Positions 1 through 64,000 of a stretch of 64,000 bases of DNA are shown piece by piece. The notes beneath the pieces are model-generated. The model searched no databases. It was not told the DNA's origin and saw only the letters and a program-made list of their open reading frames with translations. Position numbers and translations under genes: made by a program. The DNA lies in NCBI GenBank assembly GCA_012813795.1, contig GCA_012813795.1_4087.1; one strand, 5' to 3'. Numbering within the stretch: position 1 is the first letter of the stretch; each line of letters opens with the position of its first letter. Origin of the DNA: a phage.

Positions 1-310
1 GTATACAATTCCTAAGAGAACTCGTTGTGTAAGTACTTAAATCATTTTCTGTAATGAAATGAACATTCCAGTTGACTTGTACTGGATAATCTCGTTTAAA
101 AAACAAAACTACTATAGGTCTTTCAGTACTCAATGCATTAATAAATTCGATTACACTATCATAGATTTCAGTACGGATATTATTGGTTTTTATTGTACTT
201 ATGTAATTCTGTTTAATTCCGTGCTCTTCATTGATTTGATACTCAAAAAACTTTTTAAACAATTCTTTGGTTAAATCAGATGAATTTTTAATATTCGTTG
301 CGTTACTCAT
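1..310 (-). CDS. hypothetical protein, partial (runs off window start); N-terminus MSNATNIKNSSDLTKELFKK
   Basis: Minus-strand ATG at 310-308 followed by more than 100 sense codons to position 1 with no stop; absent from ORF track because no stop is inside the window; hydrophilic K/E-rich composition. Confidence 0.4.
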   Translation of the reverse strand, partial: MSNATNIKNSSDLTKELFKKFFEYQINEEHGIKQNYISTIKTNNIRTEIYDSVIEFINALSTERPIVVLFFKRDYPVQVNWNVHFITENDLSTYTTSSLRNCI

Positions 311-400
311 TCACTTCGTTCTCTCGTAACTCAAGAATTCGTTTCGTTATCTACGATAACTCACTCATTCATATTAATTAATATTGTATTGTACTTTTAA

Positions 401-950
401 AGATTGACGGGATTTGTTGAGGACATTTTCATCCCCCCGCAGGGGAATGATATTAAAAAAGAACCAATGAAGGTTCTTGATTTTGACGCTGATGGCATCG
501 GAATTTATCGAATTGCGAATTTCTCCATATTTTGGACGGTTCAAGGGTGTCCAATTTTTGGAGAACGAAAGCGGGTTGCTCTGTTTCTCTCTATCGCAGT
601 CATATGCAACGGTCGCAGGTATTTTCATCCCCTGCACTAAAGTACTGGAACTATTCGATCAATTCAGTACTCGTTTTACTCAATTTTTGGGTGCAACTTT
701 CCCGTAGAAAAATTGACCGCTTGTTTTAAGTAAAACTCCCTTAGCAAATCTGGTAAGGTGCGATCCTTATACATCTATCGAGGAACTCTCTGTATGCTTA
801 TCGGAGTTCTTTATTGAGCCGTGTCGCCGTGTGATCCGTGTCTTATTTCGCGTTTGTATGAATGCACTTGGATGGTACTAACGGGTTTCTTTTGCTCATC
901 GCCTCAGTGGGAAGGCTCATCTATCCTTTACATTTTCAAGAGAAGTAGGT
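401..950. repeat. Direct-repeat element copy A: long non-coding region with invariant cores at 567-597 and 736-771 and a GC hairpin at 433-445
   Basis: About 720 bp without a convincing ORF; shares blocks with 63490-63965 including identical 31-nt and 36-nt cores at the same spacing (139 vs 141 nt) and a stem whose loop differs between copies. Confidence 0.55.
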
Positions 951-1030
951 TCTTCTTGTCCGTTGTTAAAACGTCCACTGACATTTTCCATTACAATATA
1001 ATTATAGCACAATATAAAGTATTGTCCCAA

Positions 1031-1444
1031 TTACATATAAACTTTTTTCAATTCTTTGCTGCTTCGTTCAAATACTGTTTCAATGAACTCAATATCCTGA
1101 AGAAGCTGTAGAGTACTGGCATCTGTCTCATTGCGTGACACATTTCTGTACTTTTGTTCAGGGTGATTGAATACCACCTTGACTACACTATTTAGGTCTA
1201 CAAAATTTGACGTTTTTTTCGTATAGGAAGCCTGAAGCTTAATATACTTCCCATTATCTTGTAGATTAGTTTTATGAATTAGTTCTTCAATACCTGTAAG
1301 ATGTAAATAACTATCTTCTTCTTTGACGAATGTAATAGTCAACAGTACTGTCTTTTCGTCTCCCATGTCAGAGATATTTTTCACAGCACTAACAATTTCC
1401 AAGTTTGAAAAATCTAAATCTTTAAGCATTACACATATTTCCAC
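1031..1444 (-). CDS. hypothetical protein
   Basis: 137-aa minus-strand ORF, hydrophilic composition, packed with neighbours. Confidence 0.5.
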   Translation of the reverse strand: MEICVMLKDLDFSNLEIVSAVKNISDMGDEKTVLLTITFVKEEDSYLHLTGIEELIHKTNLQDNGKYIKLQASYTKKTSNFVDLNSVVKVVFNHPEQKYRNVSRNETDASTLQLLQDIEFIETVFERSSKELKKVYM

Positions 1445-1785
1445 AAAGTTCTATAAGTGATAATTTCTTCTCTGGTAACAGAAACTTCATTGCACTTAAC
1501 ACCATCCGTTTCATACTCGAATGGTCGTTGTGGTCGATATTCTGTTAAACCTCGTTCATACGTACAATGATAATACTTGTTCTCGTTTATGTCAAGAAAA
1601 ACAAGATCAAATTCTTCAGTAAATCGTCTATGCCCTTTACTTTCATTGCAAATGATTTTGTACTGCACATCTGGACCAAAGGTTTCAGTACTGTCATCCC
1701 ATGCACCATAGTCAGTATACAAATCATCTTCATCTAACTCTGCAAGATGCCACATTAACTGTGGTAAAAAGATTTTTGATTTCAT
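1429..1785 (-). CDS. hypothetical protein
   Basis: 118-aa ORF; GGAG 8 nt upstream of ATG; 16-bp overlap with downstream gene. Confidence 0.5.
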   Translation of the reverse strand: MKSKIFLPQLMWHLAELDEDDLYTDYGAWDDSTETFGPDVQYKIICNESKGHRRFTEEFDLVFLDINENKYYHCTYERGLTEYRPQRPFEYETDGVKCNEVSVTREEIITYRTLWKYV

Positions 1786-1797
1786 TTATTTTCTCCA

Positions 1798-1826
1798 TTA
1801 AAAAAGGACTTGATTTCTCAAGTCCC
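1798..1826 (-). terminator. Intrinsic terminator candidate after the HNH gene
   Basis: 8-bp stem ggacttga/tcaagtcc (1806-1825) with 4-nt loop, followed on the minus strand by a U6 run (plus-strand aaaaaa 1800-1805). Confidence 0.55.
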
Positions 1827-1838
1827 TATTATAACATA

Positions 1839-2450
1839 TTACTCATGTTTATCCAACAGCTTTTGTGCCTTTTTTAATGCTTTCATGTGTCGCCCGTACT
1901 CACGAACATGCCACAGATGATCGTTATCCCATAGCTCTTGACGCAATTTACGTTCTTCGATCATTTCTGGTGTAGGACGTTTACTTTCCTTCTCAATCTT
2001 ATTGAAATAACGATTCATATGTTCTTCAAGTAGATTTAGGTTTTTGACTTTCTCAAGGAATTCATCAACCGTTTCAGTTTTATTTGAACGCATTTGGTTG
2101 CATCTTGAGCACATTGTATTAAAGTTGGACTCCAAATCAGCACCACCTTTAGATGCAAGATGATTATGATCTACAGTCATCATAACTTCATAAAGACCAC
2201 ATACTGCATACACATTTAAATGCGGTTTACCATATACCGGATCACTACAGTTAGAACGTTCGATTCGAACTTCTGTAGCCTCGATGCCACAAGCAATGCA
2301 CTTACAATTCTTAACGAATGTTAGTACTTTTTGTGGAAAGTATCTGAAAGTAATACCATTATAAGTATAACGTTTCATTTTGGTACTAGTATGATTGAGT
2401 TCATCTAGTAAACTCAATTTGGTTACATAATAAACATGATATTTAGACAT
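1839..2450 (-). CDS. HNH-family endonuclease, possibly a free-standing homing endonuclease
   Basis: Cys-rich core CIACG ... VDHNHLASKGGADLESNFNTMCSRCN matches the HNH His/Asn metal-finger pattern; own terminator downstream. Confidence 0.55.
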   Translation of the reverse strand: MSKYHVYYVTKLSLLDELNHTSTKMKRYTYNGITFRYFPQKVLTFVKNCKCIACGIEATEVRIERSNCSDPVYGKPHLNVYAVCGLYEVMMTVDHNHLASKGGADLESNFNTMCSRCNQMRSNKTETVDEFLEKVKNLNLLEEHMNRYFNKIEKESKRPTPEMIEERKLRQELWDNDHLWHVREYGRHMKALKKAQKLLDKHE

Positions 2451-2451
2451 A

Positions 2452-2766
2452 CTATTCCTTAACTTTTATGTTAACACGAATATTTTGGTCTTGGAGTTTG
2501 CGAATTGTATCAATTAGTGCATCATATCTCAGTGCACATTCATTGTATATGGAATCCCAACGCGTCAGAACGTTAAGAATTTCATCACCAGCATATCCTC
2601 TATTACCATGTGAGTCAACAACAATTTTTTTAGGAATTGGTGTATCTTCTTCGCATCGTTCTAATAAGATTTCCTGGGTGATTATTGGTGACGCTTGAAC
2701 TGGAACCTTATTAGAACACCCAGTGATAAACATAAAAGTAATCAAGAATGTTAATATGTATTTCAT
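2452..2766 (-). CDS. o-spanin (outer-membrane lipoprotein subunit)
   Basis: Signal peptide with lipobox FITGC then a short mature protein; start overlaps the stop of the upstream i-spanin-like gene by 4 nt, as in the T4 pseT.3/pseT.2 pair. Confidence 0.6.
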   Translation of the reverse strand: MKYILTFLITFMFITGCSNKVPVQASPIITQEILLERCEEDTPIPKKIVVDSHGNRGYAGDEILNVLTRWDSIYNECALRYDALIDTIRKLQDQNIRVNIKVKE

Positions 2767-3137
2767 TTAAATTTCTCTCTAGCTGCAAGTGAATTTTGTT
2801 TTAGATCATTCAAAAGTTTTACCCCTTCTTCATCTAAACATACATTTCTATAAACTTCACGCTCAATAATAACTGGTACTTTAGTTTCTATTACCTTTGC
2901 ATTATTTTGCATTATATGTTTAGTTTCTACATAGTTTTTGGTATTTTGGCTTTCAATTTTACTTAAAGCCGCATCTACTTTCTTCTCTATTTTTAATTCA
3001 ATACTTTCTTTATACCCAGTATAAAAAGTATTAGCCTTCCAGCCACCAAAAGTACATGATGCCATCAGGAGAACAAACGCAATTGGTTTCCAGAACGGTA
3101 TCAGTACTTTTGAAACAATAATATCTAGTACACTCAT
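2763..3137 (-). CDS. i-spanin (inner-membrane subunit)
   Basis: N-terminal transmembrane helix (IAFVLLMASCTFGGW) followed by charged coiled-coil-like region; immediately upstream of lipoprotein gene. Confidence 0.55.
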   Translation of the reverse strand: MSVLDIIVSKVLIPFWKPIAFVLLMASCTFGGWKANTFYTGYKESIELKIEKKVDAALSKIESQNTKNYVETKHIMQNNAKVIETKVPVIIEREVYRNVCLDEEGVKLLNDLKQNSLAAREKFK

Positions 3138-3182
3138 AATAATATCTCCTATAGATGATGATATTATTTAGAGTGCTGAAAA

Positions 3183-3608
3183 TTAGCGTTTATCGATCAT
3201 TGTTTGTACATGTTCTACGAGATGTACGATTCTGGAATCACCTGATTCATACTTATCTTCGATCTCAACCTTAAATTCATCTTCAAGTTCCATGATCATT
3301 TCTACCCAGTCCAGTGAATCAAATTTGAATTTTTCTTCAATTTCTAAGGAGGTTAAATGTAAATTCATCAGTACATCTGCCTCTGATACATCACCATAAC
3401 GTCCAGAAATGAATTTTGCAATTGCTTTCTCAACGTCAGTTGGTCCACGTGTACGGTATTCTGGTTCAAGGAACCATTCACCCTTATTGATAGCTTCTAA
3501 TTCTAGTTTAATTTCATGCATTACTTTATAACGATCAGTACTTTTATGGATGCGGCTAACTTCGCGATTCAGTACACGTAGTGCATCAATAATTGTTGAA
3601 TTCAGCAT
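3183..3608 (-). CDS. Acyl-carrier-protein-like protein with N-terminal extension
   Basis: C-terminal half carries the ACP phosphopantetheine-attachment signature FDSLDWVEMIMELEDEFKVEIED (DSL serine followed by acidic helix). Confidence 0.5.
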   Translation of the reverse strand: MLNSTIIDALRVLNREVSRIHKSTDRYKVMHEIKLELEAINKGEWFLEPEYRTRGPTDVEKAIAKFISGRYGDVSEADVLMNLHLTSLEIEEKFKFDSLDWVEMIMELEDEFKVEIEDKYESGDSRIVHLVEHVQTMIDKR

Positions 3609-3617
3609 ATAATCCTC

Positions 3618-4859
3618 TTATTTTTTACCATACCACTGCATTTCTCGAATATCGATTAGAACTTTTGCAGCTAGTTGAATGTTTGGTTTCTTTGGTAGAA
3701 CTGACTTAGGATACACCACATTGCGGATATAGTCAACCTTTTCATTGAAATAATCCATGACTTCTTCATATTTCCATTTGCCGTTGCGGATATCCATTAG
3801 CATATCAGCATCAGGACGTTTAACAAGGATAATACCGCTTTGTAATGCTTCTTCGGCACTATTTAGCAGCCTGATCGTATGCATAGCATGTTTTAAATCG
3901 AAGCCGTGCTGTGATTCCATAAGAGCACGTTTAGCATTACGATTCTCTTTCCATTTGTGATAACTTTTACGGTTCTCACTGTTCTCACTGTATTCTTTTT
4001 CATTGAATTTGACAATGAGTTCAGGTCGCACTTTCAATTCTTCAGTACTGCGTTCTTTGTTGAAATAACGTAAAGAACCATCAGCGTTAATTGTACTTTC
4101 ATTAGGATTGATAATAACACCAAAGATATTTTCACCGTAATGAATTAATTCGTACCCATTGTTATAATCCAATAAGTTGAAATCACGGTCTAGTACTTTA
4201 TCAGTACTGTAATTATGTACTAAACGTACAAAATGATACTGTTTCAACGGATGAGTTGAAACTAACTGCAATGAAGTATCACGCATGTATTTTTCAAAAT
4301 CAATTTTCTTAGCATTAAATGGATGTAGTTTAGAAGTATCTAAACGTTCTACCAAATAGTGTGGGAAATTTTCATACATCCATGCTAAAGTTTCATCTAC
4401 TGGAAAATCTTCTAAGATTTCATTTAGACGTTTTTCAGCAATACGCTCTTTATCCATCCACCCGTGGTGATTAGACATACGCTTAACCTGATTATATGCA
4501 TAACCGGTATAAGAGAATGCAATCTTAGAACTAAGTAATTGTTGATTGAATGTACGTAGATAATCATAGATTTCAGTACTTTCTACGATGTGTTCAGGAT
4601 CGACCCATAGTGATTCAAGAATATTTGGGTTAGCCTCTGTATATAGTCTTAAGTACTGGTTTAGTTCATAGAATTTAGTATCTTCTTCTCTTGAATCAGA
4701 AACTTCCTTTACATTATAAAAAGGCGTAAGGATGAATTCTTTGTTAGCAAGAAAAATACCACGATAATCCGTATCACTTTCAGGTGTACTGGTTCCATAC
4801 GCTTGTGAACCTGCTAAGTGCTTCACAATTGTTTGTTCAAGAAATTTGTTATTATTCAT
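3618..4859 (-). CDS. Pol-beta-superfamily nucleotidyltransferase (RlaP/PF10127-like)
   Basis: N-terminal HLAGSQAYGTSTPESDTDYRGIF fits the GS-x(9-13)-D-x-D minimal nucleotidyltransferase motif; 413 aa. Confidence 0.5.
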   Translation of the reverse strand: MNNNKFLEQTIVKHLAGSQAYGTSTPESDTDYRGIFLANKEFILTPFYNVKEVSDSREEDTKFYELNQYLRLYTEANPNILESLWVDPEHIVESTEIYDYLRTFNQQLLSSKIAFSYTGYAYNQVKRMSNHHGWMDKERIAEKRLNEILEDFPVDETLAWMYENFPHYLVERLDTSKLHPFNAKKIDFEKYMRDTSLQLVSTHPLKQYHFVRLVHNYSTDKVLDRDFNLLDYNNGYELIHYGENIFGVIINPNESTINADGSLRYFNKERSTEELKVRPELIVKFNEKEYSENSENRKSYHKWKENRNAKRALMESQHGFDLKHAMHTIRLLNSAEEALQSGIILVKRPDADMLMDIRNGKWKYEEVMDYFNEKVDYIRNVVYPKSVLPKKPNIQLAAKVLIDIREMQWYGKK

Positions 4860-5257
4860 AGATGTAATGTTAGCTCCTTAAGAAACCCATTATAGTACTT
4901 CATGAAATCTTTATGAAGAACTTTGTATTCTGATAAACTAAAACCTAGATTGATTATAGTATCTTCTTGAAAGAACTTTTCTTCTTCGGATAAATCCAGA
5001 GAAATAGATTGTTTGCCACCATTTAATATTTTAGTAAAGTGTAAACCATCATTATTGATTTCAACGTACATGAAGTTATTTTCACGGTCACGAGGGCAAA
5101 CAATATTAATGGAACTTTCACCAGTATCATCGTATTCGAATGATATTACATCATACTCCCCGATTCCATAAAATTGTTTATCACTCTTGTAACCACTATA
5201 TACTTTTTTATACGAATCCATCTGTCTTATGGTGCTATACACATCATCAAGATCCAT
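4856..5257 (-). CDS. hypothetical protein
   Basis: 133-aa ORF, 4-nt overlap with upstream gene. Confidence 0.45.
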   Translation of the reverse strand: MDLDDVYSTIRQMDSYKKVYSGYKSDKQFYGIGEYDVISFEYDDTGESSINIVCPRDRENNFMYVEINNDGLHFTKILNGGKQSISLDLSEEEKFFQEDTIINLGFSLSEYKVLHKDFMKYYNGFLKELTLHL

Positions 5258-5260
5258 ATA

Positions 5261-5764
5261 TTAACTCCTGTAATATTGTAAGTATTCGTTCTTTGCATCA
5301 TCCAATTCTTTTTGTTCCTGAATTTTCTTGTCGATATCTTTCACGTTAGTAATACTGTTATATAGTGCGTGAAGTACAAGAAAATCAGATACAGAAGTTG
5401 AAAAATCCTTCCACCCACCCGACATTTTAATACGCACACGTATATCACGTCTGTCCATCCAGAACATGAACCCTCGATTCCCACGTAAATCATTAATCAT
5501 ATACACTTTAAAACAAGAATCTCGTGTGCTGCTTTCTCGTCTTTCAAAATCTACATGAATACTGAACAAGTTTTTTGAACAGTACTTACAAAATGCATAG
5601 ATAACAGGATCACATTTTGAAAGAAGATATTTGTTTTGAATAATTTCTCTGCGATCTTTGTCTGATTTAATATTAGGTACTAATAAAGTACTTTTGTTTA
5701 AAATCAACGCAACTAAGTACTGAAGAATATCATTATCTTTTACTTTATGTTTACCGAAGATCAT
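5261..5764 (-). CDS. hypothetical protein, member 3 of tandem paralog triplet
   Basis: Shares S/T-D-x-D-R-R/K ... I ... K ... LS motif and C-terminal charged helix with 5764-6264 and 6274-6834. Confidence 0.5.
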   Translation of the reverse strand: MIFGKHKVKDNDILQYLVALILNKSTLLVPNIKSDKDRREIIQNKYLLSKCDPVIYAFCKYCSKNLFSIHVDFERRESSTRDSCFKVYMINDLRGNRGFMFWMDRRDIRVRIKMSGGWKDFSTSVSDFLVLHALYNSITNVKDIDKKIQEQKELDDAKNEYLQYYRS

Positions 5765-6264
5765 TAGTATAATCCTTTTAGTTTATTAAATTCATTAAGT
5801 TTATGCTGCTCGTATTCTAACTTCTTGTACTTTGTTTCAAGCTCACGAAGTGCAACGAGTAAATGAAACAAAAACATTTGTTCATGTTTAGGTAGAATAT
5901 TCGCATCTCCGTTAATATAAACAAATGTATGTTTTTCATCATAATCTTTAGATGAATATGTTACTGCATTAAAATCAACCTTAGTTTCGGTATCAAACAA
6001 TTTTACACGGTTGATATGATTACCATATATGAATACTGGTTCATATAACCAACGTTCACCGTATGGTTCTTTAACTAGGTCAGTGATTAGTTTCATTAGA
6101 GAATGAGAACTTAACATTTCTTTAATTTTAAGTATAGTTCTACGATCTTCATCAGTACTGATAATTTCTTTTAAAGAATAGCTTTTCATCAGTACTGGAA
6201 GAATTAATGTACACCACTCTACATTTTCTCTTTTGTGATCATTATTTTTCTTTTTGAAAAACAT
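5764..6264 (-). CDS. hypothetical protein, member 2 of tandem paralog triplet
   Basis: KEIISTDEDRRTILKIKEMLSSH aligns with KDFVKTDNDRKSLIELKYKLSKH in the upstream paralog. Confidence 0.5.
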   Translation of the reverse strand: MFFKKKNNDHKRENVEWCTLILPVLMKSYSLKEIISTDEDRRTILKIKEMLSSHSLMKLITDLVKEPYGERWLYEPVFIYGNHINRVKLFDTETKVDFNAVTYSSKDYDEKHTFVYINGDANILPKHEQMFLFHLLVALRELETKYKKLEYEQHKLNEFNKLKGLY

Positions 6265-6273
6265 AGTAACCTC

Positions 6274-6834
6274 TTAATATAAATCAGTTATTCTCTTTTG
6301 GATTTTGAATTTACGCTGTTCTTCTTCAATTTGTGATAACTTTTCTTTAATATCTTCAGCACCAATAATCACATGGAACAGGATCATTAACTCATCATCA
6401 TCAAGCATATCATAATGAACACCGAAGTTTGAAGAAACAACACATGACAAATCTCTTGATTGAATGATAGTTTCTTCGGTTCTGTGTTCAATCCCTGCTG
6501 GTGTATACTCAACCTTAAACATGATTGCATTTTTTAAATCGCGTAGTATGAATTCTTCATCACCACCCCACAGTTTTTTTTGAACCATAGACCAACGATC
6601 ACTGAATGGATTTTGGGTGTATTCTGCCAGTAATCCATATAGTTTATGCTTACTTAACTTGTACTTAAGTTCGATAAGTGATTTACGATCATTATCGGTT
6701 TTCACAAAATCTTTAAGAGTTACACTTTTGCATAGCAAACGAACTACTAGTGTATTCTGAAAGTGCTGCTCTTTTTCTTTTAAACGTTGTAACTGTGCGG
6801 GTGACAGTGGTGGTCTAAAACGTGATTGTACCAT
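6274..6834 (-). CDS. hypothetical protein, member 1 of tandem paralog triplet
   Basis: AGGAGG 7 nt upstream of ATG; paralogous to the two downstream genes. Confidence 0.5.
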   Translation of the reverse strand: MVQSRFRPPLSPAQLQRLKEKEQHFQNTLVVRLLCKSVTLKDFVKTDNDRKSLIELKYKLSKHKLYGLLAEYTQNPFSDRWSMVQKKLWGGDEEFILRDLKNAIMFKVEYTPAGIEHRTEETIIQSRDLSCVVSSNFGVHYDMLDDDELMILFHVIIGAEDIKEKLSQIEEEQRKFKIQKRITDLY

Positions 6835-6865
6835 AGATTCCTCCTAGTTTTTTAGCATTATACAG

Positions 6866-6896
6866 ATAAAAGAAAAGCCTGTCAATAGACAGGCTT
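6866..6896 (-). terminator. Intrinsic terminator candidate after fibre-like gene
   Basis: Stem agcctgtc/gacaggct (6876-6895) with loop aata; U-rich tract follows on the minus strand. Confidence 0.5.
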
Positions 6897-6902
6897 AATT
6901 TT

Positions 6903-10245: not shown

Positions 10246-10255
10246 ATTATCTCCA

Positions 10256-51853: not shown

Positions 51854-51868
51854 TATATCACCTAAATT

Positions 51869-51897: not shown

Positions 51898-51905
51898 TGT
51901 AATAA

Positions 51906-53618: not shown

Positions 53619-53627
53619 ATGAACTCC

Positions 53628-53885: not shown

Positions 53886-53911
53886 TTCTCCTTGTGCTGG
53901 GCTAGTTAGTA

Positions 53912-56583: not shown

Positions 56584-56879
56584 TTTAGTTTTAACCTTTT
56601 AGCAACATATTCTCTTAATTTTCCATCAGGAAGTTCTACTACAAAATATGGATGATATGTTAGTCTCAGTGTAACCCTTTTTATTACACCTCGGTCATAT
56701 GATATGGGAATTCCATAGGGATCATCAATTTCAACTTCCTTGCCATATAACATTGCATTGCAGGTATAGGTGTATTGCGTGAGTATACCGTGCATAGCAC
56801 TGACGGAACCACCACTGCTCCATCTGGCAGCATCTGCGAGCATTGTTATCGTACTACTAACTAATTGTATTTTGTCCAT
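56580..56879 (-). CDS. Small-protein paralog family member
   Basis: 99 aa; AMLYGKEVEI motif. Confidence 0.4.
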   Translation of the reverse strand: MDKIQLVSSTITMLADAARWSSGGSVSAMHGILTQYTYTCNAMLYGKEVEIDDPYGIPISYDRGVIKRVTLRLTYHPYFVVELPDGKLREYVAKRLKLK

Positions 56880-56922
56880 AATGTACCTACAAAAAAGACC
56901 AGCAATCCATGCTGGCCTGTAC

Positions 56923-57201
56923 TTATTTTAATTCTTTATACGTGTATATACCAACAGTATCATTTGAGAAAATAATATAAAAATACACACCATGTGTATC
57001 AAAATCAATTTCATCAATGATACCTGATTTATTCATTGATTTATGTGTAACTTCTTTATTAGTATAAAGTGGAATAAACTCAGAAGAAAAATCATCTATC
57101 AAAGCCCTTATATCGTCTATGTATGGTTTATTTTTAATATACATATCACCATAAAGTTCTAAAAGATATTCATATATCCACACATCTCTTTGTAAATTCA
57201 T
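56923..57201 (-). CDS. hypothetical small protein
   Basis: 92-aa ORF. Confidence 0.4.
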   Translation of the reverse strand: MNLQRDVWIYEYLLELYGDMYIKNKPYIDDIRALIDDFSSEFIPLYTNKEVTHKSMNKSGIIDEIDFDTHGVYFYIIFSNDTVGIYTYKELK

Positions 57202-57209
57202 AACTTACC

Positions 57210-57938
57210 TTAGAAGTAAATCATACCAAGTAATTCAGAATCATCAGGTCTGTTATAATCTTGCTTCTTAACTTTGAAGTAGAAAGACTCATGTTCTTCT
57301 AAATTATATCTCTTTTTAAGGCAACGTGTATAAGTTTGACAGTTAGGTGTGACCCATTCATAAATGTGGACACCATTCTCATCATAACCATTTACACTAC
57401 AACGATTGCCTTCGTGCTTTTTGTAGTTTTTACTCTTTTCAGTAAATTCACGAGCACATGTGGTATGTGGTTTTTTATAATCAAAAGGTACTTCAGTTAT
57501 ACGGAAATAATAGAAAAATTCGTCTTCATCATATCCCAAGAGCACTGTGTTAGTTTCACGTACATTGTAATGATTCTTACTTTTTGCTTCATTTTCGTAT
57601 ATATCTTTCAGTACTTCATCAAATACTACATCACTTGCAGCATTCGGGTTTGACACACCTGATACACGGCGTTCAATAATAAAATCGGTAAACTTACGTT
57701 CTTCTTCAATATCACCGTTCATATACAGACTAACAAACTTATCCTTGTATGTTTTGACTGAATATTGTTTACCTTGCACTTCACTGTATACATCAGCTAG
57801 TAAATTCTCTTGTCCGCATTGGACACCACTTACTGAATATGCAGTTGCATGTTCTGCCATTACGGATGTTAGCATTTGGAAATTTGCAATGTTTAATTGG
57901 TTTGCTAACTCGCTGGCAAATCTGATACGGTCAATCAC
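57210..57938 (-). CDS. hypothetical protein
   Basis: 242-aa ORF. Confidence 0.5.
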   Translation of the reverse strand: MIDRIRFASELANQLNIANFQMLTSVMAEHATAYSVSGVQCGQENLLADVYSEVQGKQYSVKTYKDKFVSLYMNGDIEEERKFTDFIIERRVSGVSNPNAASDVVFDEVLKDIYENEAKSKNHYNVRETNTVLLGYDEDEFFYYFRITEVPFDYKKPHTTCAREFTEKSKNYKKHEGNRCSVNGYDENGVHIYEWVTPNCQTYTRCLKKRYNLEEHESFYFKVKKQDYNRPDDSELLGMIYF

Positions 57939-57996
57939 TCTACACGCTCCTTGTGTTAGATATTATTCCATACCAACAATTATATCACTACTTATA

Positions 57997-58299
57997 CTAC
58001 TGTCCCGCTTTATAACAATAAAGATTCTCTAATTTGAAGTCCGCAAGGTCACATTCAGAACGTACTCGGTTCTTGTTCCAGTACAAAATACGAATCCTTT
58101 CATAATCACGATAAACACTAATAATGCTTTTGTGCTTGGATTTATAGTATTCCTGCACAGTCACAAGATACACGGTCCTCAATAAAGACTTAATGGGATA
58201 GGGCATATTCTGTGCTGTAGTAATACTATAAATCATCTTCATTGTTTCAGCAATAAGTACTTCATTTGTTTGATTTGTCATTGAAATCCTTACATACAC
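57997..58299 (-). CDS. hypothetical small protein
   Basis: 100-aa ORF. Confidence 0.4.
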   Translation of the reverse strand: MYVRISMTNQTNEVLIAETMKMIYSITTAQNMPYPIKSLLRTVYLVTVQEYYKSKHKSIISVYRDYERIRILYWNKNRVRSECDLADFKLENLYCYKAGQ

Positions 58300-58444
58300 T
58301 ATGTAAAGTAAATCCTAAACCTACACCTACGAATGGGAATAGTAAATTAATGTACCAGACATTCATTGTCGATAAGAAACAAATCCCACCTACTGTCAGT
58401 ACTGCAAGAGAAAAAAGACTCCAGATAAAAAATAATGTTCTCAT
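58262..58444 (-). CDS. Small membrane protein
   Basis: 60 aa, two hydrophobic helices. Confidence 0.35.
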   Translation of the reverse strand: MRTLFFIWSLFSLAVLTVGGICFLSTMNVWYINLLFPFVGVGLGFTLHSVCKDFNDKSNK

Positions 58445-58731
58445 AAAAAGGTTACCTCATCGAATGAAAAGTTTAAGTACGTTGGTGAATTTTGGTCTAA
58501 ACTATGAATGGTAATATGACCATTGAAATAAAAAGAAACATCTTCTACTTGAAGTTTTGGATATTTTCTAGTACTGAAATATCTTCCTACTACTAAGTCA
58601 GAAAACATATTTCTGTATTCTTGTGTTACGTTTTTGTATAGGTTATGTAGAGCACTTTCTTGTGAATCGAAAGTAATGGAATAATCTTTCACCAATATAG
58701 CATATGTTTTCTGTATTAAAATAATATTCAC
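58441..58731 (-). CDS. Small-protein paralog family member
   Basis: 96 aa; DLVVGRYFST motif. Confidence 0.4.
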   Translation of the reverse strand: MNIILIQKTYAILVKDYSITFDSQESALHNLYKNVTQEYRNMFSDLVVGRYFSTRKYPKLQVEDVSFYFNGHITIHSLDQNSPTYLNFSFDEVTFL

Positions 58732-58991
58732 AAATCACCTAAGATTTCAAAAATTATTGATACTGGGTATACTGGGTTATCAGTTGAAGTAATACATACT
58801 ATTAGTACGTTTTTTCCGGGTGCTATATCTTTTATCGTGAAATTAAAATCATTAAGATTCAGTGATTTTCCAAGATAATGTTCTTTTAAGGATTCAATAA
58901 AATAGTCCAGTACTGGATTATCTGCACCACAGGATAACTCAGTACTGGCTATCATTTTATATGTATGAACTATTAGTTCAGCTTTAGTCAT
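58728..58991 (-). CDS. hypothetical small protein
   Basis: Track ORF trimmed to ATG at 58991, which overlaps the upstream stop as ATGACTAA. Confidence 0.4.
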   Translation of the reverse strand: MTKAELIVHTYKMIASTELSCGADNPVLDYFIESLKEHYLGKSLNLNDFNFTIKDIAPGKNVLIVCITSTDNPVYPVSIIFEILGDL

Positions 58992-59184
58992 GTACACGCT
59001 CACAATTAAGGCAATAAATGCACTCAATGTCTGGTCGCCATGATTTATCAAAATCTTTGTGCTGTTCTTCAGTGTATTCCGCATCATCATTGATGGGAAA
59101 GAAATCCCCAGCACCAGTGGCCCAGTCTGAATCTAAGCGGAAACGAGCTAATTGAGTACTGTTACAATATGGACACTTATTCAA
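58984..59184 (-). CDS. Small zinc-ribbon protein
   Basis: CPYC ... CIYCLNC paired Cys motifs. Confidence 0.4.
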   Translation of the reverse strand: MNKCPYCNSTQLARFRLDSDWATGAGDFFPINDDAEYTEEQHKDFDKSWRPDIECIYCLNCERVHD

Positions 59185-59464
59185 AATTTATTCCTTCTAA
59201 CTGATATACGTTTAATGAAAATGACCCACTATTATTATCGCATCTGAAACACAGTGTTAAAGAACCATTAAAACTAACGACATCCGTACAGGTACATTTT
59301 TCACCATTGGATATGATAGATTTTCCTATATATAAATCTCTTACTATAGTACGGTAATGTTGCCATAAAAAATAATACACACTTTCATAGTACTCATCTG
59401 TTACATATGACAAGTATAAGAATCTATAAAATACTTGTATTTCCTTTAAGTTGTTTTTCATCAT
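59177..59464 (-). CDS. Small-protein paralog, member of 5-gene tandem array
   Basis: RDLYIGKSIISNGEKCTCTDVVSFNGSL aligns with the three genes upstream. Confidence 0.45.
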   Translation of the reverse strand: MMKNNLKEIQVFYRFLYLSYVTDEYYESVYYFLWQHYRTIVRDLYIGKSIISNGEKCTCTDVVSFNGSLTLCFRCDNNSGSFSLNVYQLEGINFE

Positions 59465-59724
59465 TTAAAATCCAGTAAATTTATACCAATGAAGTCCCCG
59501 TCTCTGCGGTAGAATTCTAAACGCAACCTACCTCTATGACTTACTACATCAGTACAACGATAGTTTTTATTATTTCTACGTATTGGAAGTCCTATAAAAT
59601 GATGTTGTATCTCAGATAGATAATTTGACCATATTTTATTATGTACTTCATAGTAGAAACCTAATTCGTTATTCATATCATCATATAAAAGTTGATACGT
59701 GAATTGTAAATCATGATAGTTCAT
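59461..59724 (-). CDS. Small-protein paralog, member of 5-gene tandem array
   Basis: MNYHDLQFTYQLLY ... HHFIGLPI ... RCTDVVSHRGRL. Confidence 0.5.
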   Translation of the reverse strand: MNYHDLQFTYQLLYDDMNNELGFYYEVHNKIWSNYLSEIQHHFIGLPIRRNNKNYRCTDVVSHRGRLRLEFYRRDGDFIGINLLDFK

Positions 59725-59996
59725 AGGTACTCCAAATCAACAAATCCGCTTTTCGCCTTTTCATTGTTATAGTAAATTCCAACAAGACTTCCATTATAAC
59801 TTTTAATTCTGATAATACGTACAGTCATGTCGTCAATCATATATTCTTTATCAACAAAAATCTCGTTAATCATTGCCAAATATTCACACCACAATGTAAG
59901 AAAAAAATCTCGTTCATCGTAAGTTAATATTCCTTCACCACGTTCATATTGTTCATGAAGAATTTTGTACGTGAATTGTAAATCCTTATAATTCAT
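59721..59996 (-). CDS. Small-protein paralog, member of 5-gene tandem array
   Basis: Trimmed to ATG at 59996 so protein begins MNYKDLQFTYKIL like its neighbours. Confidence 0.45.
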   Translation of the reverse strand: MNYKDLQFTYKILHEQYERGEGILTYDERDFFLTLWCEYLAMINEIFVDKEYMIDDMTVRIIRIKSYNGSLVGIYYNNEKAKSGFVDLEYL

Positions 59997-60252
59997 AGAT
60001 ATAAATCTCATGTAATCCATCACTAGAATCTCTACCCCTGAAGCATAGATCCCCGTTGTAACTATCAACTTGAAATATTTTTACTGTTTTACCTTCGTAT
60101 TGAATTATAGTACCTATAAAATGTTCACGTAAAGATTTTATATAATCACTCCACAAACGATGATAAAATGCATTATCCATGCAGTTGTTATCAGCGTAAC
60201 GATACATATAAAATGTTAGTTTATAGGTGAAATGTAAATCCTTATAATTCAT
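59986..60252 (-). CDS. Small-protein paralog, member of 5-gene tandem array
   Basis: MNYKDLHFTYKL ... EHFIGTIIQYEGK ... VDSYNGDL. Confidence 0.5.
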   Translation of the reverse strand: MNYKDLHFTYKLTFYMYRYADNNCMDNAFYHRLWSDYIKSLREHFIGTIIQYEGKTVKIFQVDSYNGDLCFRGRDSSDGLHEIYIYEL

Positions 60253-60524
60253 TATAATATCTCTAAATTTATAGATTGTTGTCCAATAATAGAATCAGTA
60301 TAGAATAACACAATTTCACCACCTATACTATCAACGCGTGTTAGCTTACGCATTTCACCATCTATAAAGATTTCGTTAGCGTAAAAGTAATTTTGAATCA
60401 TTGTAAAATATTCATTCCATATAATATAAACTGGATTTTTATAAATGATAGGATTATGTACTTTACTTTCAATATATGTTTTGTATAAAGCTTTATATGT
60501 TCTATTCAGTACTCGATAATCCAT
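60252..60524 (-). CDS. Small-protein paralog, member of 5-gene tandem array
   Basis: MDYRVLNRTYKALY ... RVDSIGGEI. Confidence 0.45.
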   Translation of the reverse strand: MDYRVLNRTYKALYKTYIESKVHNPIIYKNPVYIIWNEYFTMIQNYFYANEIFIDGEMRKLTRVDSIGGEIVLFYTDSIIGQQSINLEIL

Positions 60525-60569
60525 TTACTTTTCCTTAAAAAGATGCCCGAACTAAGTCGGGCATAATTA

Positions 60570-61226
60570 TTATTCATCGTCGTCATCATCATCCAGTTCG
60601 ATGTAGATTTCACCATCATCGTCATCAAAGCTTTCAACGATAACACCTGGAATGTTCAGAGTACTGAATAATACGTCATATTTTTCATCTGAAGGAATTA
60701 AGACAAATTCTTCAATATCTTGAATCTCTGGCATCTTATCTTCAGGGATACCCATCTGAAGAAGTGATTGAACCATCTTTGCTTTGAATTCTTCAAATTT
60801 CTCTTTAGATGCAAAATCCATGATAAGTTGTGCTACATATCCATCTTCATTACCAAAAGCAATTGCCATTTGTGGATCTGTACCTACTAAACACCATGTA
60901 GTTTTTGCTGTGTTAGTTTCAATAAATTTATGAATTTCTTTGATTACATCATGTCTTGAACTGTTTACGATGCAATCTAGATTCTCAATGCCGTTCATAA
61001 TACCAGTACTGTCATTGGTTTCTTCAAACTCACCGAAGTCACCCAGAACATACTGTACACCATCATCATAAATGGAATATGCATAATCTAAATCAGCAAG
61101 AGAATCACATTTACCTCGAATTGGACGAAGGGATAGCCCAAGGCGTAGATAACGAAAATAAGTATTACTGTTTGTATTTGTCAAAATAGTTCTCCTTGGT
61201 GAGATAGAATAAATGATCACTTCCAA
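60570..61226 (-). CDS. hypothetical protein with poly-acidic C-terminus (start uncertain)
   Basis: Ends DDDDGEIYIELDDDDDDE; N-terminal part of track ORF overlaps upstream gene. Confidence 0.4.
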   Translation of the reverse strand: MEVIIYSISPRRTILTNTNSNTYFRYLRLGLSLRPIRGKCDSLADLDYAYSIYDDGVQYVLGDFGEFEETNDSTGIMNGIENLDCIVNSSRHDVIKEIHKFIETNTAKTTWCLVGTDPQMAIAFGNEDGYVAQLIMDFASKEKFEEFKAKMVQSLLQMGIPEDKMPEIQDIEEFVLIPSDEKYDVLFSTLNIPGVIVESFDDDDGEIYIELDDDDDDE

Positions 61227-61455
61227 GATAAATTATATATCCAGTATATGAAAGACTCGGTGATGACCTCACTGTACACAGTTTACCTTCAGTACTGTGC
61301 GAAGTCAAGAGTTTTTTGCATTCAGTACTGAAGCCATTGATACCACGGCATTTAATGTGCCATAGTTCTATACCGTCTAGTACTGAAAATGTTTCGTATG
61401 ATCCTAAAATACACTCATCCAATATGATAGAAGTGATATCATTTATTTCAGACAT
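61165..61455 (-). CDS. hypothetical small protein
   Basis: 96-aa ORF. Confidence 0.4.
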   Translation of the reverse strand: MSEINDITSIILDECILGSYETFSVLDGIELWHIKCRGINGFSTECKKLLTSHSTEGKLCTVRSSPSLSYTGYIIYLGSDHLFYLTKENYFDKYKQ

Positions 61456-61741
61456 GTAAATTGTCCAGTAAGTTGATTACATCATCGTGTGTAAGTTCAG
61501 TATCAGTACAAAGGAAGTTCATAATGAACTGCATTTGTGAATAAAGATTAGCGAGAAATTCAACTTCATCCAGACGATATGAATAACCCATTGGAACCAC
61601 TTGACATGTCCATTCACCTAGGGTTTTGTTCGCAACAACCGATACAATAGTGTTACCTTTGTATTCTACTTGGATATTACGATATCCTGAACTTTCATTT
61701 TGTTCCCATAGTACTGGGTTAGTTTTGAAGAGTACTGTCAT
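61448..61741 (-). CDS. hypothetical small protein
   Basis: 97-aa ORF. Confidence 0.4.
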   Translation of the reverse strand: MTVLFKTNPVLWEQNESSGYRNIQVEYKGNTIVSVVANKTLGEWTCQVVPMGYSYRLDEVEFLANLYSQMQFIMNFLCTDTELTHDDVINLLDNLHV

Positions 61742-62277
61742 GGTTCTTTCCTCATGTATTTTATTACATCTTTAAAAAGTTTTATTTTCAAGTCATTATC
61801 ATCACCTGGTAGATAAGAACTAAAGCTTTCAAAATCATCACGCTTAGCAAAAGAACGCATTTCAGTTGAACTGTACTTGCTAACGTTTCGGTCAATACCA
61901 GCTTGGATTGCTTTTATATTACGAAAATTATACAAGTTTCCATTGTATCTGTCAAGTACATTTTGAAAGTTTTCTATCCTGTCTGAACCACATATGAAAA
62001 GAACATCACTGTACTTACCATTCAATTCCTGCATAATATCAAAAAGATTATCTTCAGTACTGATGTTGTGTTGAATTCTTGGATAGAAACCCTCAGTGTA
62101 ATACATTTTCAATTCAGGTGGTAATGGATTCTTAATACAATCTTGTGTAGTACTAAGGTATATTTTTAAATCAGCATTGTATTGTTCTTTCATCGATACG
62201 GCTTTATCAAAAATTAACCCATGTCCCAAATGCACTGGATTTATACGTCCATACGTTACTATACAAGTGTCTTTCAT
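61738..62277 (-). CDS. HxGH-family nucleotidyltransferase, NMN adenylyltransferase-like (NadM/PPAT type)
   Basis: N-terminal YGRINPVHLGHG (GRxxPxHxGH) and later KYSSTEMR (ISSTxxR-like) motifs; 179 aa. Confidence 0.55.
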   Translation of the reverse strand: MKDTCIVTYGRINPVHLGHGLIFDKAVSMKEQYNADLKIYLSTTQDCIKNPLPPELKMYYTEGFYPRIQHNISTEDNLFDIMQELNGKYSDVLFICGSDRIENFQNVLDRYNGNLYNFRNIKAIQAGIDRNVSKYSSTEMRSFAKRDDFESFSSYLPGDDNDLKIKLFKDVIKYMRKEP

Positions 62278-62801
62278 ATATTCTTCATCACCTGACCGAG
62301 AGATTTAAGATAGTTGATTTTAGCTGGTGTTAAGTACTTATCCAGTACTATTAAACAGCTAGGGAATGGAGCACTATCAGTCTTTTTATCTGGTTCTTCA
62401 GGGATGCCAAATTTTAAACGTCCTTTAATAAAACAAATACAGTCACAAAGCTTAGATGCATATTCCTGAAATGCAATTGTATCAGTACGTGATGGAACAA
62501 GTATCAGTACTGTTGCACCATTATTATAAGCATCAACTGCCTTAGATAGCCAAGGTTTTAAGTCACTGTAAGGGGGATTTAACCAGACGATATTGTTTCC
62601 CCAATCCTGTGAAAGACTATCATCTTCCGGTGTAAAAAACTTGTCACATAATGCAGTTTCTTTAACACATGCTGCATCCAGTGTGAATTCCCAGACTTCA
62701 TCCAAATCTTCAAAGAATTCCTTTGGAGTAGTCCAGTTATCTTTTCCAGTACTGAAGTGTACCGAATGTTTGTTTTTTGTGGGATTATCCTTTTTCCCCA
62801 T
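62274..62801 (-). CDS. Phage-type DNA N6-adenine methyltransferase (Dam family)
   Basis: WTTPKEFF ... FTLDAAC ... VWLNPPYS matches the Dam motif pattern (DAAC, NPPY). Confidence 0.8.
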   Translation of the reverse strand: MGKKDNPTKNKHSVHFSTGKDNWTTPKEFFEDLDEVWEFTLDAACVKETALCDKFFTPEDDSLSQDWGNNIVWLNPPYSDLKPWLSKAVDAYNNGATVLILVPSRTDTIAFQEYASKLCDCICFIKGRLKFGIPEEPDKKTDSAPFPSCLIVLDKYLTPAKINYLKSLGQVMKNI

Positions 62802-62818
62802 ATCATTAAGTCCTTTAA

Positions 62819-63361
62819 TTATAGACAGTTCTGTAAGATATTATCGAACAGTTTACTGTCCAGGTTGTACTCATATAAAAATTTAAATCTAGAACCGTAC
62901 TTCATCATTATATTGAATGCTTCATCTTCTGCTAATACATAGAAGTTGAAGTCATCTACTGTACCATTGAACCCAATAAAATCCATAATTTCAATAGTAA
63001 CATCATGTCCTTGATGGAAGTACTTCACTGACAAAGGGAGTCCAAGAACACTATATTGTCTGGATTCCCCTTCTAATTTCCCATCTACTACATGGAATTT
63101 CCTTGATACTGTATTAGAATTATATCGCTCTTCTCCGTAATGTCCATAGCGAACAGAAAAAATTACTGGGTTTTTTGTAGGTCTACAAGTGATTTTTGCT
63201 AGTTCTACACCTCCCATGTACTCAACAATATGATTGATAGTTCCTTTTTCTTTTACTATTTTATATCCATCAAATGAATCTCTATCAAATTCTTCTAGTA
63301 CTTCAAATTCTTTTGATTTATAAATGATCTCTGTTGTTTTGTTCTTTGAAAATACAGGCAT
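62819..63361 (-). CDS. hypothetical protein
   Basis: 180-aa ORF; AAGGA upstream; lies immediately downstream of repeat element copy B. Confidence 0.5.
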   Translation of the reverse strand: MPVFSKNKTTEIIYKSKEFEVLEEFDRDSFDGYKIVKEKGTINHIVEYMGGVELAKITCRPTKNPVIFSVRYGHYGEERYNSNTVSRKFHVVDGKLEGESRQYSVLGLPLSVKYFHQGHDVTIEIMDFIGFNGTVDDFNFYVLAEDEAFNIMMKYGSRFKFLYEYNLDSKLFDNILQNCL

Positions 63362-63489
63362 TATTATTCCTTTTTAGGAAACATCAAATAATGTACTCGA
63401 TATTGATTTCGTTTGCACTCAATCAACATCAGTAGAATTAATTCATCGCTACGCTCTGAATAATTCTAATAGTACTAAATGGTTTTAAT

Positions 63490-63965
63490 TAATATTGACG
63501 AGGTTTGGAAGAGCATATTTCATCCCCCCACTGGGGGAAAGAATTAAAATTTGACGCTGGTGGTCTTCACATATTTCATATCACGAATTCTCTTAACGAG
63601 GCGAAAGCGGGTTGCTCTGTTTCTCTCTATCGCGGTTCTTGTAGCAACGGTCGTCGGTCTTAAACATCCCGACACATAATACGAGTACCATATGAACAGT
63701 ACTGGTATTTGATTTCACCAAATTTTGGACGCAACTATCTTGTACAAATAGTTGACCGCAATTTCTAATGAAATCTCCCTTAGCAAATCTGGTAAGGTGC
63801 GATCCTTATATGTCTATCTAGGAACTCTCTGTGTGCTTATCGGAGTTCTTTATACAGCCGCATTGCCGTGAGGGGTTCATAATATGCCCACATCTGACGG
63901 GTTTCATCTGCTGTTCGTACTGAAAGGACTACTCATCTACCCTCTACATTTTCGAGTGGATTAGG
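63490..63965. repeat. Direct-repeat element copy B: invariant cores at 63603-63633 and 63774-63809, GC hairpin at 63524-63538
   Basis: No ORF of 60 aa or more in 63362-64000; same block order, spacing and conserved terminal segment as copy A. Confidence 0.55.
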
Positions 63966-64000
63966 CTCTTAATCATTTCCATATGGAACCTTTCAGGATT

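Follow-up and report, generated by a model that had tools for sequence, protein, structure and literature searches.

The 64,000-bp stretch of phage DNA analysed here (contig GCA_012813795.1_4087.1, hereafter the window) raises the question of why it is strewn with one 6-bp palindrome, AGTACT. An exact count gave 165 copies, a mean of one per 388 bp, whereas 21.7 copies are expected from independent bases and 17.2, 31.9, and 60.1 from Markov models of orders 1, 2, and 3; the observed/expected ratio is 9.6–11. AGTACT ranks first among all 4096 hexamers (z = 35.6), followed by GTACTG and CAGTAC, which overlap it, and it is the only strongly enriched 6-bp palindrome, the runner-up TCGCGA occurring 7 times against 2.9 expected. 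The 8-bp palindrome CAGTACTG was found 55 times (expected: 0.64 from independent bases and 2.1 at order 2), and 15 of these 55 sites have the form TCAGTACTGA. A maximal-order Markov model expects 131 AGTACT and 53.5 CAGTACTG, but these values approach the observed ones because the 5-mers already carry the excess (246 AGTAC against 64 expected), and so they do not refute it. A sequence-only reading of the window had estimated by eye a several-fold over-representation, often within the 8-mer, which proved to be an understatement (165 against 17–22 expected; 55 of the 165 sites in the 8-mer); its local counts of seven in 3.0–4.7 kb, eight in 40.6–42.3 kb, and none in 12.0–12.95 kb were correct. 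A palindrome many-fold above Markov expectation and the top word of its length behaves as a highly iterated palindrome (HIP), whereas a restriction-avoided palindrome shows a ratio well below 1. The excess is real, strong, and under selection, and AGTACT is a highly iterated palindrome in a virus. The first bases of all copies, from the exact count, are as follows.

AGTACT, 0–10 kb: 32, 125, 641, 666, 1112, 1344, 1687, 2323, 3103, 3537, 4044, 4192, 4203, 4575, 4652, 4894, 5581, 5687, 5716, 6154, 6191, 7170, 7298, 8073, 8610
AGTACT, 10–20 kb: 10036, 10578, 11552, 13412, 13511, 14195, 14205, 14751, 15398, 15575, 15798, 16257, 16628, 17017, 17425, 18004, 18139, 18176, 18193, 19277, 19986
AGTACT, 20–30 kb: 20537, 20880, 20898, 20989, 21116, 21775, 21822, 23181, 23658, 23708, 23843, 24518, 24943, 25339, 25465, 25896, 26526, 26664, 26671, 27045, 27400, 28519, 28927, 29417, 29492
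AGTACT, 30–40 kb: 30875, 31529, 33352, 33845, 34511, 34727, 35303, 36776, 37197, 37758, 38084, 38280, 38594, 39607
AGTACT, 40–50 kb: 40744, 40765, 40895, 41804, 41933, 42045, 42175, 42296, 42928, 43016, 43050, 43073, 43163, 43698, 44013, 44182, 44406, 44571, 45101, 45119, 45129, 45397, 45754, 46016, 46183, 46551, 47209, 47892, 47975, 47994, 48457, 48517, 48526, 48863, 49606, 49633
AGTACT, 50–64 kb: 50350, 50938, 51125, 51541, 51884, 52245, 53361, 53727, 53908, 53938, 54170, 54422, 54644, 54782, 55469, 55773, 56152, 56560, 57610, 58256, 58398, 58570, 58909, 58941, 59155, 59389, 60508, 60660, 61005, 61291, 61324, 61379, 61710, 61731, 62056, 62149, 62333, 62344, 62506, 62748, 63019, 63297, 63471, 63698
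CAGTACTG, 55 sites within 1343..63704: 1343, 1686, 4043, 4202, 6153, 6190, 10035, 10577, 13411, 13510, 14750, 15397, 17016, 18003, 18192, 19985, 20897, 20988, 21774, 21821, 23657, 23842, 24517, 24942, 25338, 25464, 34726, 35302, 37196, 39606, 40764, 41803, 41932, 42295, 43162, 43697, 44405, 45128, 47891, 48516, 49632, 50937, 51883, 54169, 54781, 58397, 58908, 58940, 61004, 61290, 61323, 62055, 62505, 62747, 63697

The excess is independent of coding, and both codon choice and amino-acid sequence are shifted. The 146 copies in genes fall into frames 0, 1, and 2 in numbers of 72, 21, and 53, and the other 19 lie outside open reading frames (ORFs) or at their edges; non-coding DNA (5.2 kb) fully contains 18 copies against 1.5 expected. 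Shuffling of synonymous codons, with the proteins and the codon usage of each gene kept, left 39.2 ± 5.6 AGTACT and 3.7 ± 1.7 CAGTACTG in place of the 146 and 50 observed in genes (z = 19 and 27, respectively), and shuffling of codon order left 22.9 and 0.96. Ser-Thr dipeptides are written AGTACT in 72 of 168 cases (20.5 expected), and the hexamer is realised in 53 of 108 compatible X-Val-Leu contexts (9.4 expected) and 20 of 59 compatible X-Tyr-Z contexts (3.2 expected), whereas of 90 Thr-Ser dipeptides just 3 are encoded by the mirror dicodon ACTAGT (11 expected). The proteins themselves contain Ser-Thr and Val-Leu at 1.65 and 1.5 times the amino-acid expectation, in contrast to 0.88 for Thr-Ser and 1.02 for Leu-Val. 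The word is thus genome-wide, present in all frames and between genes, and unexplained by peptide or codon usage, as is typical of a HIP. The sequence-only reading would have given way to a full explanation by codon and dipeptide usage, and the shuffles speak against such an explanation. AGT accounts for 31% of the Ser codons in the window, a share inflated by the palindrome, and the related phage 121Q has, from annotation alone, a tRNA-Ser at 75464–75555 with the anticodon ACT, which would read AGT.

The bases around the hexamer indicate what kind of signal it is. C precedes it in 91 of the 165 sites and G follows it in 97, with a weak T at −2 and a weak A at +2; information beyond the hexamer is restricted to these positions. 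The flank preferences are mirror-symmetric and the two sides independent (both are present in 55 sites against 53.5 expected), as predicted by additive half-site recognition of duplex DNA by a symmetric dimer. The genes of the window are on the − strand nearly throughout, the exception being a + strand block at 28139–37883 with four large genes and no counterpart in phage A4 (see below). An RNA-level signal is argued against by flanks that are symmetric while almost all genes lie on one strand. The asymmetric word and the orientation or strand bias of uptake sequences or Chi were not found, word and flanks both being symmetric. Among one-mismatch variants in four enriched genomes, those altered at positions 1/6 and 3/4 occur at about twice the expectation, and those altered at positions 2/5 are near control levels, at about 1.2–1.5 times. 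No one-step neighbour was depleted in the four enriched and four control genomes except AGGACT/AGTCCT, which is low in the controls too.

Comparison with related phages showed that the sites are maintained. The window (GC content 34.4%, coding share about 92%) matches Escherichia phage A4 (ON286972.1, about 65.7–126.7 kb, opposite strand) over about 54 kb at 98% identity and is placed by its sequence in Asteriusvirus; A4 is a 355-kb Asteriusvirus and kin of 121Q and PBECO4, which are RaK2-like jumbo myoviruses. Aligned AGTACT sites were compared with neighbouring control hexamers of the same codon phase, with the following results.

121Q, 79% nucleotide identity: 61 of 97 sites retained (63%), controls 32%, p = 1e-8
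PBECO4, 77% nucleotide identity: 42 of 77 sites retained (55%), controls 30%
WPEC3, 77% nucleotide identity: 47 of 83 sites retained (57%), controls 32%
fENko-Kae01, 71% nucleotide identity: 14 of 34 sites retained (41%), controls 17%
GAP32, 71% nucleotide identity: 10 of 25 sites retained (40%), controls 15%

Where the amino-acid context is unchanged, the hexamer is identical at 50 of 54 sites (93%) against 138 of 288 controls (48%; p = 1.3e-10), and in PBECO4 and WPEC3 the corresponding values are 83% and 45–50%. The amino-acid context itself is not more conserved at the sites (0.66 against 0.62 for controls). Among window sites without a copy at the aligned place in 121Q, 25 involve an amino-acid change and four a synonymous change alone. 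Each relative has about 31 private sites, indicating turnover about a maintained density; between the window and A4, 98% identical, five sites are private to the window and nine to A4, too few to polarise gains and losses. The sites are thus conserved above control words, as HIP sites are in the test of Xu et al. (2018), and AGTACT is kept by selection on the double-stranded DNA itself.

The excess was present in every sampled RaK2/121Q-like enterobacterial jumbo phage, as the counts below show.

121Q: 141 AGTACT against 13.8 expected in 50 kb
fENko-Kae01: 130 against 13.8 expected in 50 kb
RaK2: 96 against 12.8 expected in 50 kb
GAP32: 139 against 11.9 expected in 50 kb
CBB: 172 in 50 kb (3.4 per kb)
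PA5oct: 3 against 14.3 expected
XacN1: 0 against 9.3 expected
Atu_ph07: 3 against 6.7 expected
T4: 7 against 9.4 expected
phi92: 0 against 15.4 expected (positions 1–50000)

Eight metagenomic contigs from IMG/VR showed 6–10 times the expectation, and enrichment across these contigs, 121Q, fENko-Kae01, RaK2, and GAP32 spans 6–12 times. A 50-kb sample of E. coli K-12 contained three copies, a density 43-fold below that of the phage. The limits of the group are sharp: ligase identity is at least 58% within the RaK2-like group and at most 34% for all others, and an IMG/VR protein scan with the ligase found close relatives only. The outer flanks vary with lineage (TCA-GTAC in Asteriusvirus and RaK2; AAA/GAA-GTAC in fENko-Kae01 and several metagenomic relatives) around a constant core, which fits a reader co-evolving with the phage. 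AGTACT looks like a restriction target in Gammaproteobacteria, because it is absent or depleted in phi92, XacN1, and PA5oct; XacN1 also has no GATC (210 expected). No earlier mention of the excess was found in full-text searches of the available literature, including the CBB, RaK2, Sharanji, and jumbo-phage review papers, and it has probably gone unreported so far.

The same window avoids other palindromes. Twenty-four other 6-bp palindromes, all containing G+C and including GGATCC, GGTACC, CTGCAG, CAGCTG, CCATGG, GCATGC, and GTCGAC, are absent, with about 85 copies expected together; GCGC is likewise absent (29 expected), and GATC occurs 126 times against 210–250 expected. From the 24 absent palindromes and GCGC, the genome shows classical restriction avoidance, to which AGTACT is one extreme exception. 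Such avoidance points either to strong pressure from Type II restriction on DNA that is mostly unmodified or to a nuclease of the phage with these words in the host genome as its targets. The rarest hexamers, TAAATA (6 against 55 expected) and TATTTA (15 against 66), are probably scarce through avoidance of spurious T4-type late promoters; an ATAAATA late motif has been reported in CBB and GAP32 (PMC5259590).

Along the window, the scatter of AGTACT is near-Poisson, with a coefficient of variation of the gaps of 0.92, a per-gene chi-square of 102.5 on 100 degrees of freedom, and a flat profile along gene length. In five divergent genomes pooled, pairs at most 300 bp apart numbered 351 against 410 expected, a slight deficit, and no helical phasing or long-range periodicity was evident among scattered sites; clustering and phasing were therefore rejected. 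Density varies among the following stretches.

3103–4657: dense stretch with seven sites, 4.1 per kb, as dense as 40744..42301
6903..12955, − strand: lowest-density region with seven sites, 1.16 per kb; two genes of about 900 amino acids and a small gene between them
28139..37883, + strand: block of four large genes with 14 sites, 1.44 per kb, against 2.67 per kb in − strand genes
40744..42301: dense stretch with eight sites in and around the ClpP-like prohead protease gene and adjoining small genes
51875..51898, − strand: 24-bp perfect palindrome AAAGGGATCAGTACTGATCCCTTT, an intrinsic terminator 3' of the polynucleotide kinase gene, with the loop GUAC

The density peaks (about 4 per kb) fall in stretches of small genes. 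Even 6903..12955, though lowest, has about four times the expected density; no copy lies between 11558 and 13411. The hairpin at 51875–51898 has a 10-pair stem, a 4-nt loop, and a T-rich tail on the − strand (−14.9 kcal/mol, z = −2.95). The sequence-only reading had placed AGTACT in intergenic hairpins; the terminator exists, but the plural was an overstatement, as this is a single case among 165 sites. A hairpin or terminator role was accordingly rejected, fitting 1 of the 165 sites.

What the palindrome may do is suggested by early promoters of relatives. In 245 kb of 121Q there are 710 AGTACT (mean 2.9 per kb), and the early-gene region at 130–155 kb, with many tiny ORFs and spacers, has 5–8 per kb. 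Within 129–157 kb of this phage, AGTACT lies between −81 and −7 in 34 of 45 strong σ70-like promoters, with its first base at −19/−20 in 20 promoters (…AGTACTG-TATAAT) and at −39 in 10 (aaaaAGTAC-TTGCAA), with −42, −62/−63, and −29 to −31 as minor positions (four promoters each). The promoter-borne copies abut the −10 hexamer, abut or overlap the −35 hexamer, or stand upstream of that by about two turns of the helix; the three main positions, separated by about 21 bp, thus share one helical face. Throughout 121Q, 30 looser promoter matches have AGTACT at −19 to −21, against about two expected given the high density. The early region of CBB (genus Mimasvirus) contains aaaaAGTACTTGACA-N17-TAcAAT three times; RpoD-like early promoters were described by the CBB authors, who did not note the palindrome (PMC5259590). 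A palindrome at fixed distances from the −35 and −10 hexamers in several promoters, which is what characterises an operator, was found in these relatives only (121Q and CBB).

Two further features lie in or beside the early region of 121Q. At 135.2–137.2 kb, 2 kb without an annotated gene contain about 22 AGTACT copies, mostly as AGTACTGA, together with at least five iteron-like GATGGCTAGA repeats spaced by 16–24 bp, TAATCA repeats, an A+T-rich run, and a 69-nt repeat starting TACTGAATTTTGGGCGTAA; this could be a replication origin, a control region, or a small-RNA gene cluster. At 117–131 kb, directly upstream of the AGTACT-dense early region, is a run of some 14 paralogues on the − strand, whose products have the RCC1-like annotation 'regulator of chromosome condensation / putative DNA condensation'.

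We tentatively favour the explanation that AGTACT is a HIP1-like highly iterated palindrome and the binding site of a putative symmetric, lineage-specific DNA-binding protein tied to transcription. Beyond the observed excess, coding independence, mirror symmetry, synonymous-site conservation, protein shift, limitation to one clade, and promoter positions in relatives, we infer that a protein reads AGTACT, that it is phage-encoded, that it represses, and that the scattered copies have a role. The putative reader would be a two-fold symmetric, lineage-specific dimer whose fullest site is TCAGTACTGA. Given that the hexamer is built into σ70-type early promoters of sister genomes, it would most probably act on transcription. 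In the version that we prefer, it would be a repressor or silencer of transcription by the host (σ70) RNA polymerase and would shut off early promoters, which is the simplest reading of sites that overlap the core promoter. Scattered copies, which number roughly 1000 per genome by extrapolation from the 710 in 245 kb of 121Q, may mark or coat the whole phage chromosome, serving as genome-wide sites of binding, marking, or titration. A more specific form of this explanation, possible but doubtful, is that of a genome-wide 'self word': a putative small dimeric phage protein, possibly injected, would read (C)AGTACT(G), gate the σ70 early promoters, and coat or mark the chromosome as distinct from host DNA. 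Such a reader might silence, counteract silencing, or keep time by being titrated while genome replication proceeds. The sequence-only reading had proposed a recognition site rather than restriction avoidance; this part is supported in general terms, since the signal is symmetric and at the DNA level, is under selection, has the sign opposite to avoidance, and occupies promoter positions in relatives, whereas the suggested link to a Dam-family methyltransferase is not.

Several points weigh against the binding-site explanation. The promoter arrangements are absent from the window, whose copies are all of the scattered kind, so that the link between scattered and promoter copies is drawn from the shared hexamer. 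The 34 of 45 promoters are not 34 independent events, since some early promoters are paralogues of one another, although AGTACT is found in at least four promoter families, at differing positions. Pfam scans of 25 proteins (20 window ORFs and five from relatives) yielded no candidate reader. In addition, biased repair restoring the sites could be an alternative source of the conservation, a site of 6–8 bp is short for a specific regulator, and the usefulness of about 1000 intragenic copies is without explanation.

The main rival centres on methylation. AGTACT would be the target of a phage methyltransferase protecting the roughly 1000 sites from restriction specific to AGTACT, with HIP1-type maintenance, and methylation-dependent mismatch repair or a methyl-mark function (e.g., a replication-coupled switch of early promoters) would create the excess and keep it up. 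We regard this as unlikely. From its avoidance in phi92, XacN1, and PA5oct, AGTACT seems to be under restriction pressure, so that unprotected sites would be dangerous and an AGTACT-rich genome should need protection. ScaI isoschizomers, Eco255I among them, do occur in E. coli strains. Several methyltransferases are encoded within the clade, namely a PF05869 Dam-like enzyme, a clade-conserved C5 enzyme, and an N4-cytosine enzyme in one subclade. Furthermore, HIPs have been linked to cognate methyltransferases (Elhai 2015, PMC4390886), and AGTACT-methylating enzymes exist in giant viruses (PMC7253447). However, methylation accounts for tolerance of the sites but not for a ten-fold excess, and no one-step neighbour is depleted as directed T:G to C:G repair would predict. 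Repair resembling very-short-patch repair was rejected on the same ground, AATACT/AGTATT being at 1.2–1.5 times expectation in all four enriched genomes. Nor does the trait follow the distribution of any methyltransferase. The enzyme in the window is the following.

62274..62801, − strand: gene of a Dam-family (PF05869) methyltransferase (Pfam E 3.6e-32), a candidate only

Homologues of this protein occur in 1854 phage records, well over a thousand unrelated phages, and no solved structural relative or specificity information was found for it. PF05869 homologues of T1-like and Stx phages methylate GATC. The link of this gene to AGTACT, which the sequence-only reading had raised, therefore finds no evidence, the family being widespread, and the enzyme was rejected as the cause. 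A distinct family of unusually small adenine methylases in the phage subgroup, exemplified by a CBB protein, has been suggested to act on RNA (Iyer et al. 2021, PMC7824862), which would also weaken the case for methylation if the Dam-like gene of the window belonged to that family. The N4-cytosine methyltransferase (GAP32_152) is confined to the GAP32/CBB/Erwinia/Serratia/Yersinia subclade and missing from Asteriusvirus and RaK2, and was likewise rejected. The C5 methyltransferase, though clade-conserved, was rejected as a predictor: the closest enzymes outside the clade come from phi92-like phages, and AGTACT is missing from the 50 kb of phi92 sampled. In RaK2, moreover, 5-methylcytosine has been reported in CpG context (PMC3622015), and AGTACT contains no CpG. 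Methylation of AGTACT and its binding by a protein are not mutually exclusive.

Two further alternatives, a function in replication or topology and reading by a host protein such as SlmA, carry less weight. In the former, which we consider quite improbable, AGTACT would be a signal for replication, recombination, or DNA topology, the preferred site of a phage enzyme (a type II topoisomerase, a primase or initiator, or a nicking or recombination enzyme), and many copies would be selected to let a 350-kb chromosome replicate, untangle, or recombine efficiently. The non-coding 2 kb of 121Q, where AGTACT stands beside iteron-like GATGGCTAGA and the A+T-rich run, is origin- or control-region-like; the phage encodes topoisomerase II subunits, primase, UvsX/UvsY-like proteins, and ligase; and the scatter is even, slightly more regular than Poisson. 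On the other hand, no enzyme preference for AGTACT is known, primase sites of the trinucleotide type need no hexamer enrichment, the fixed promoter positions are not predicted, and no helical or long-range periodicity was evident among the scattered sites. The latter supposes that an enterobacterial host DNA-binding protein, for example the nucleoid-occlusion factor SlmA, reads AGTACT and is exploited or titrated by the phage; this appears very improbable. The SlmA site GTgAGTACTcAC, a 12-bp palindrome, does have an AGTACT core, and the excess is confined to phages of Enterobacterales and absent in relatives on Pseudomonas, Xanthomonas, and Agrobacterium. Since early promoters must be active ahead of all phage gene expression, any positive role in them would have to fall to a protein that comes from the host or is injected. 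Nevertheless, only one of the 165 window sites matches GTNAGTACTNAC, and the preferred flanks (T-C...G-A) differ from the SlmA consensus at the outer positions that confer specificity: there is no enrichment of G at −3 (22 of 165) and C is preferred at −1, so that SlmA sites were rejected. The flank preference also varies among phage lineages, and other coliphages lack the excess (T4) or avoid the word totally (phi92). Finally, that the excess is a by-product of composition, codon usage, or dipeptide usage with no DNA-level meaning has virtually no chance of being correct: AGT, ACT, and GTA are frequent codons and the maximal-order model nearly matches the counts, but that model merely hands the excess down to 5-mers, relatives of equal GC content lack the excess, and the shuffles, the per-context counts with the depleted ACTAGT, the enrichment in all frames and in non-coding DNA, and the synonymous-site test rule it out.

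The surroundings of the sites differ from those in A4 at two places. The A4 alignment stops at window position 28498 and picks up again at 38244–38264; the intervening 28499–38243 (about 9.7 kb) holds four large + strand genes for proteins of 1095, 839, 541, and 733 amino acids, and A4 has another, shorter gene set at the equivalent place. This segment is likely a swapped tail-fibre or host-range cassette, and its lower AGTACT density is as expected for DNA acquired more recently. At window 3587/3619, A4 is about 3.6 kb longer, with a putative tail fibre and a 'tail protein I' annotated there; the difference is an indel of receptor-binding genes between phages 98% identical. Elsewhere, window 41660–64000 has the gene order methyltransferase, nucleotidyltransferase … RNA ligase … polynucleotide kinase … phosphatase … DNA ligase … phosphoesterase … ClpP-like protease, which is kept from Asteriusvirus to fENko-Kae01 and partly to GAP32. 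Judged from its gene content, this run looks like an RNA/DNA repair module.

Phage genomes usually avoid short palindromes, whereas here a whole clade of 350-kb phages enriches one, at a cost in codon choice and even in amino-acid sequence. The only comparable case, cyanobacterial HIP1, has had no functional explanation for 30 years. If the 'self word' form of the binding-site explanation is true, AGTACT would be without precedent both as a highly iterated palindrome to which a reader and a function can be assigned and as one found in a virus. The phage system is perhaps far easier to dissect than HIP1, with its small genome, synchronous infection, limited gene set, and mutable sites at fixed promoter positions. 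Restriction by ScaI or Eco255I-type enzymes, or an assay of AGTACT methylation, offers an immediate probe of these therapeutic-candidate phages. The word may also serve as a simple signature of the clade in metagenomes, as all eight IMG/VR relatives sampled show it, and genome recoding or engineering of these phages should spare AGTACT sites.

Comparison with known systems helps to place the palindrome. Restriction-avoided words resemble AGTACT in that it is a 6-bp palindrome, the ScaI/Eco255I site, in a genome with classical avoidance; the sign is opposite, however, as AGTACT is in ten-fold excess here and it is phi92, XacN1, and PA5oct that avoid it. Very-short-patch repair, which in E. coli favours CCWGG over CTWGG, is likewise a DNA-level process able to raise the frequency of a methylase target, but it causes a small excess with depletion of the deamination product, in contrast to a ten-fold excess with no depleted neighbour. 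The DNA uptake sequence of Neisseria, the uptake signal sequence of Haemophilus, and Chi resemble AGTACT in several respects: their density is on the order of one per kb, they occur within genes at some expense in codon choice, they are now and then used in terminators, and they are far denser than in foreign DNA (43-fold for AGTACT against the E. coli sample). These words are asymmetric and read in one orientation, Chi with a strand bias, whereas AGTACT is palindromic, implies no uptake or RecBCD-like reader, and provides a single terminator in the window. The met box of MetJ, 8-bp AGACGTCT, forms operator arrays for a small dimeric repressor. As in such arrays, a palindrome of 6–8 bp lies over the core promoter, often in two copies about two helical turns apart; MetJ-type operators are, however, limited to a few promoters, and AGTACT copies are genome-wide and to more than 95% intragenic. 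HIP1 (GCGATCGC) is the highly iterated palindrome of cyanobacteria (Elhai 2015, PMC4390886; Xu, Lawrence and Durand 2018, PMC5861425). AGTACT resembles it as a short palindrome many-fold over-represented throughout the genome at about one per gene, in coding DNA in all frames and between genes, conserved above control words, and lineage-specific. AGTACT is in 10-fold excess and its octamer in 26- to 87-fold excess; the corresponding figure for HIP1 is 15- to 300-fold. AGTACT differs in being A+T-rich where GCGATCGC is G+C-rich, in residing in a virus and not a cellular chromosome, in having no identified cognate methyltransferase, and in occurring also at fixed promoter positions (in relatives). 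It is not HIP1 proper, that is, GCGATCGC in a cyanobacterial genome, and the likeness is behavioural only; by this analogy, the behaviour of AGTACT is closest to that of cyanobacterial HIP1.

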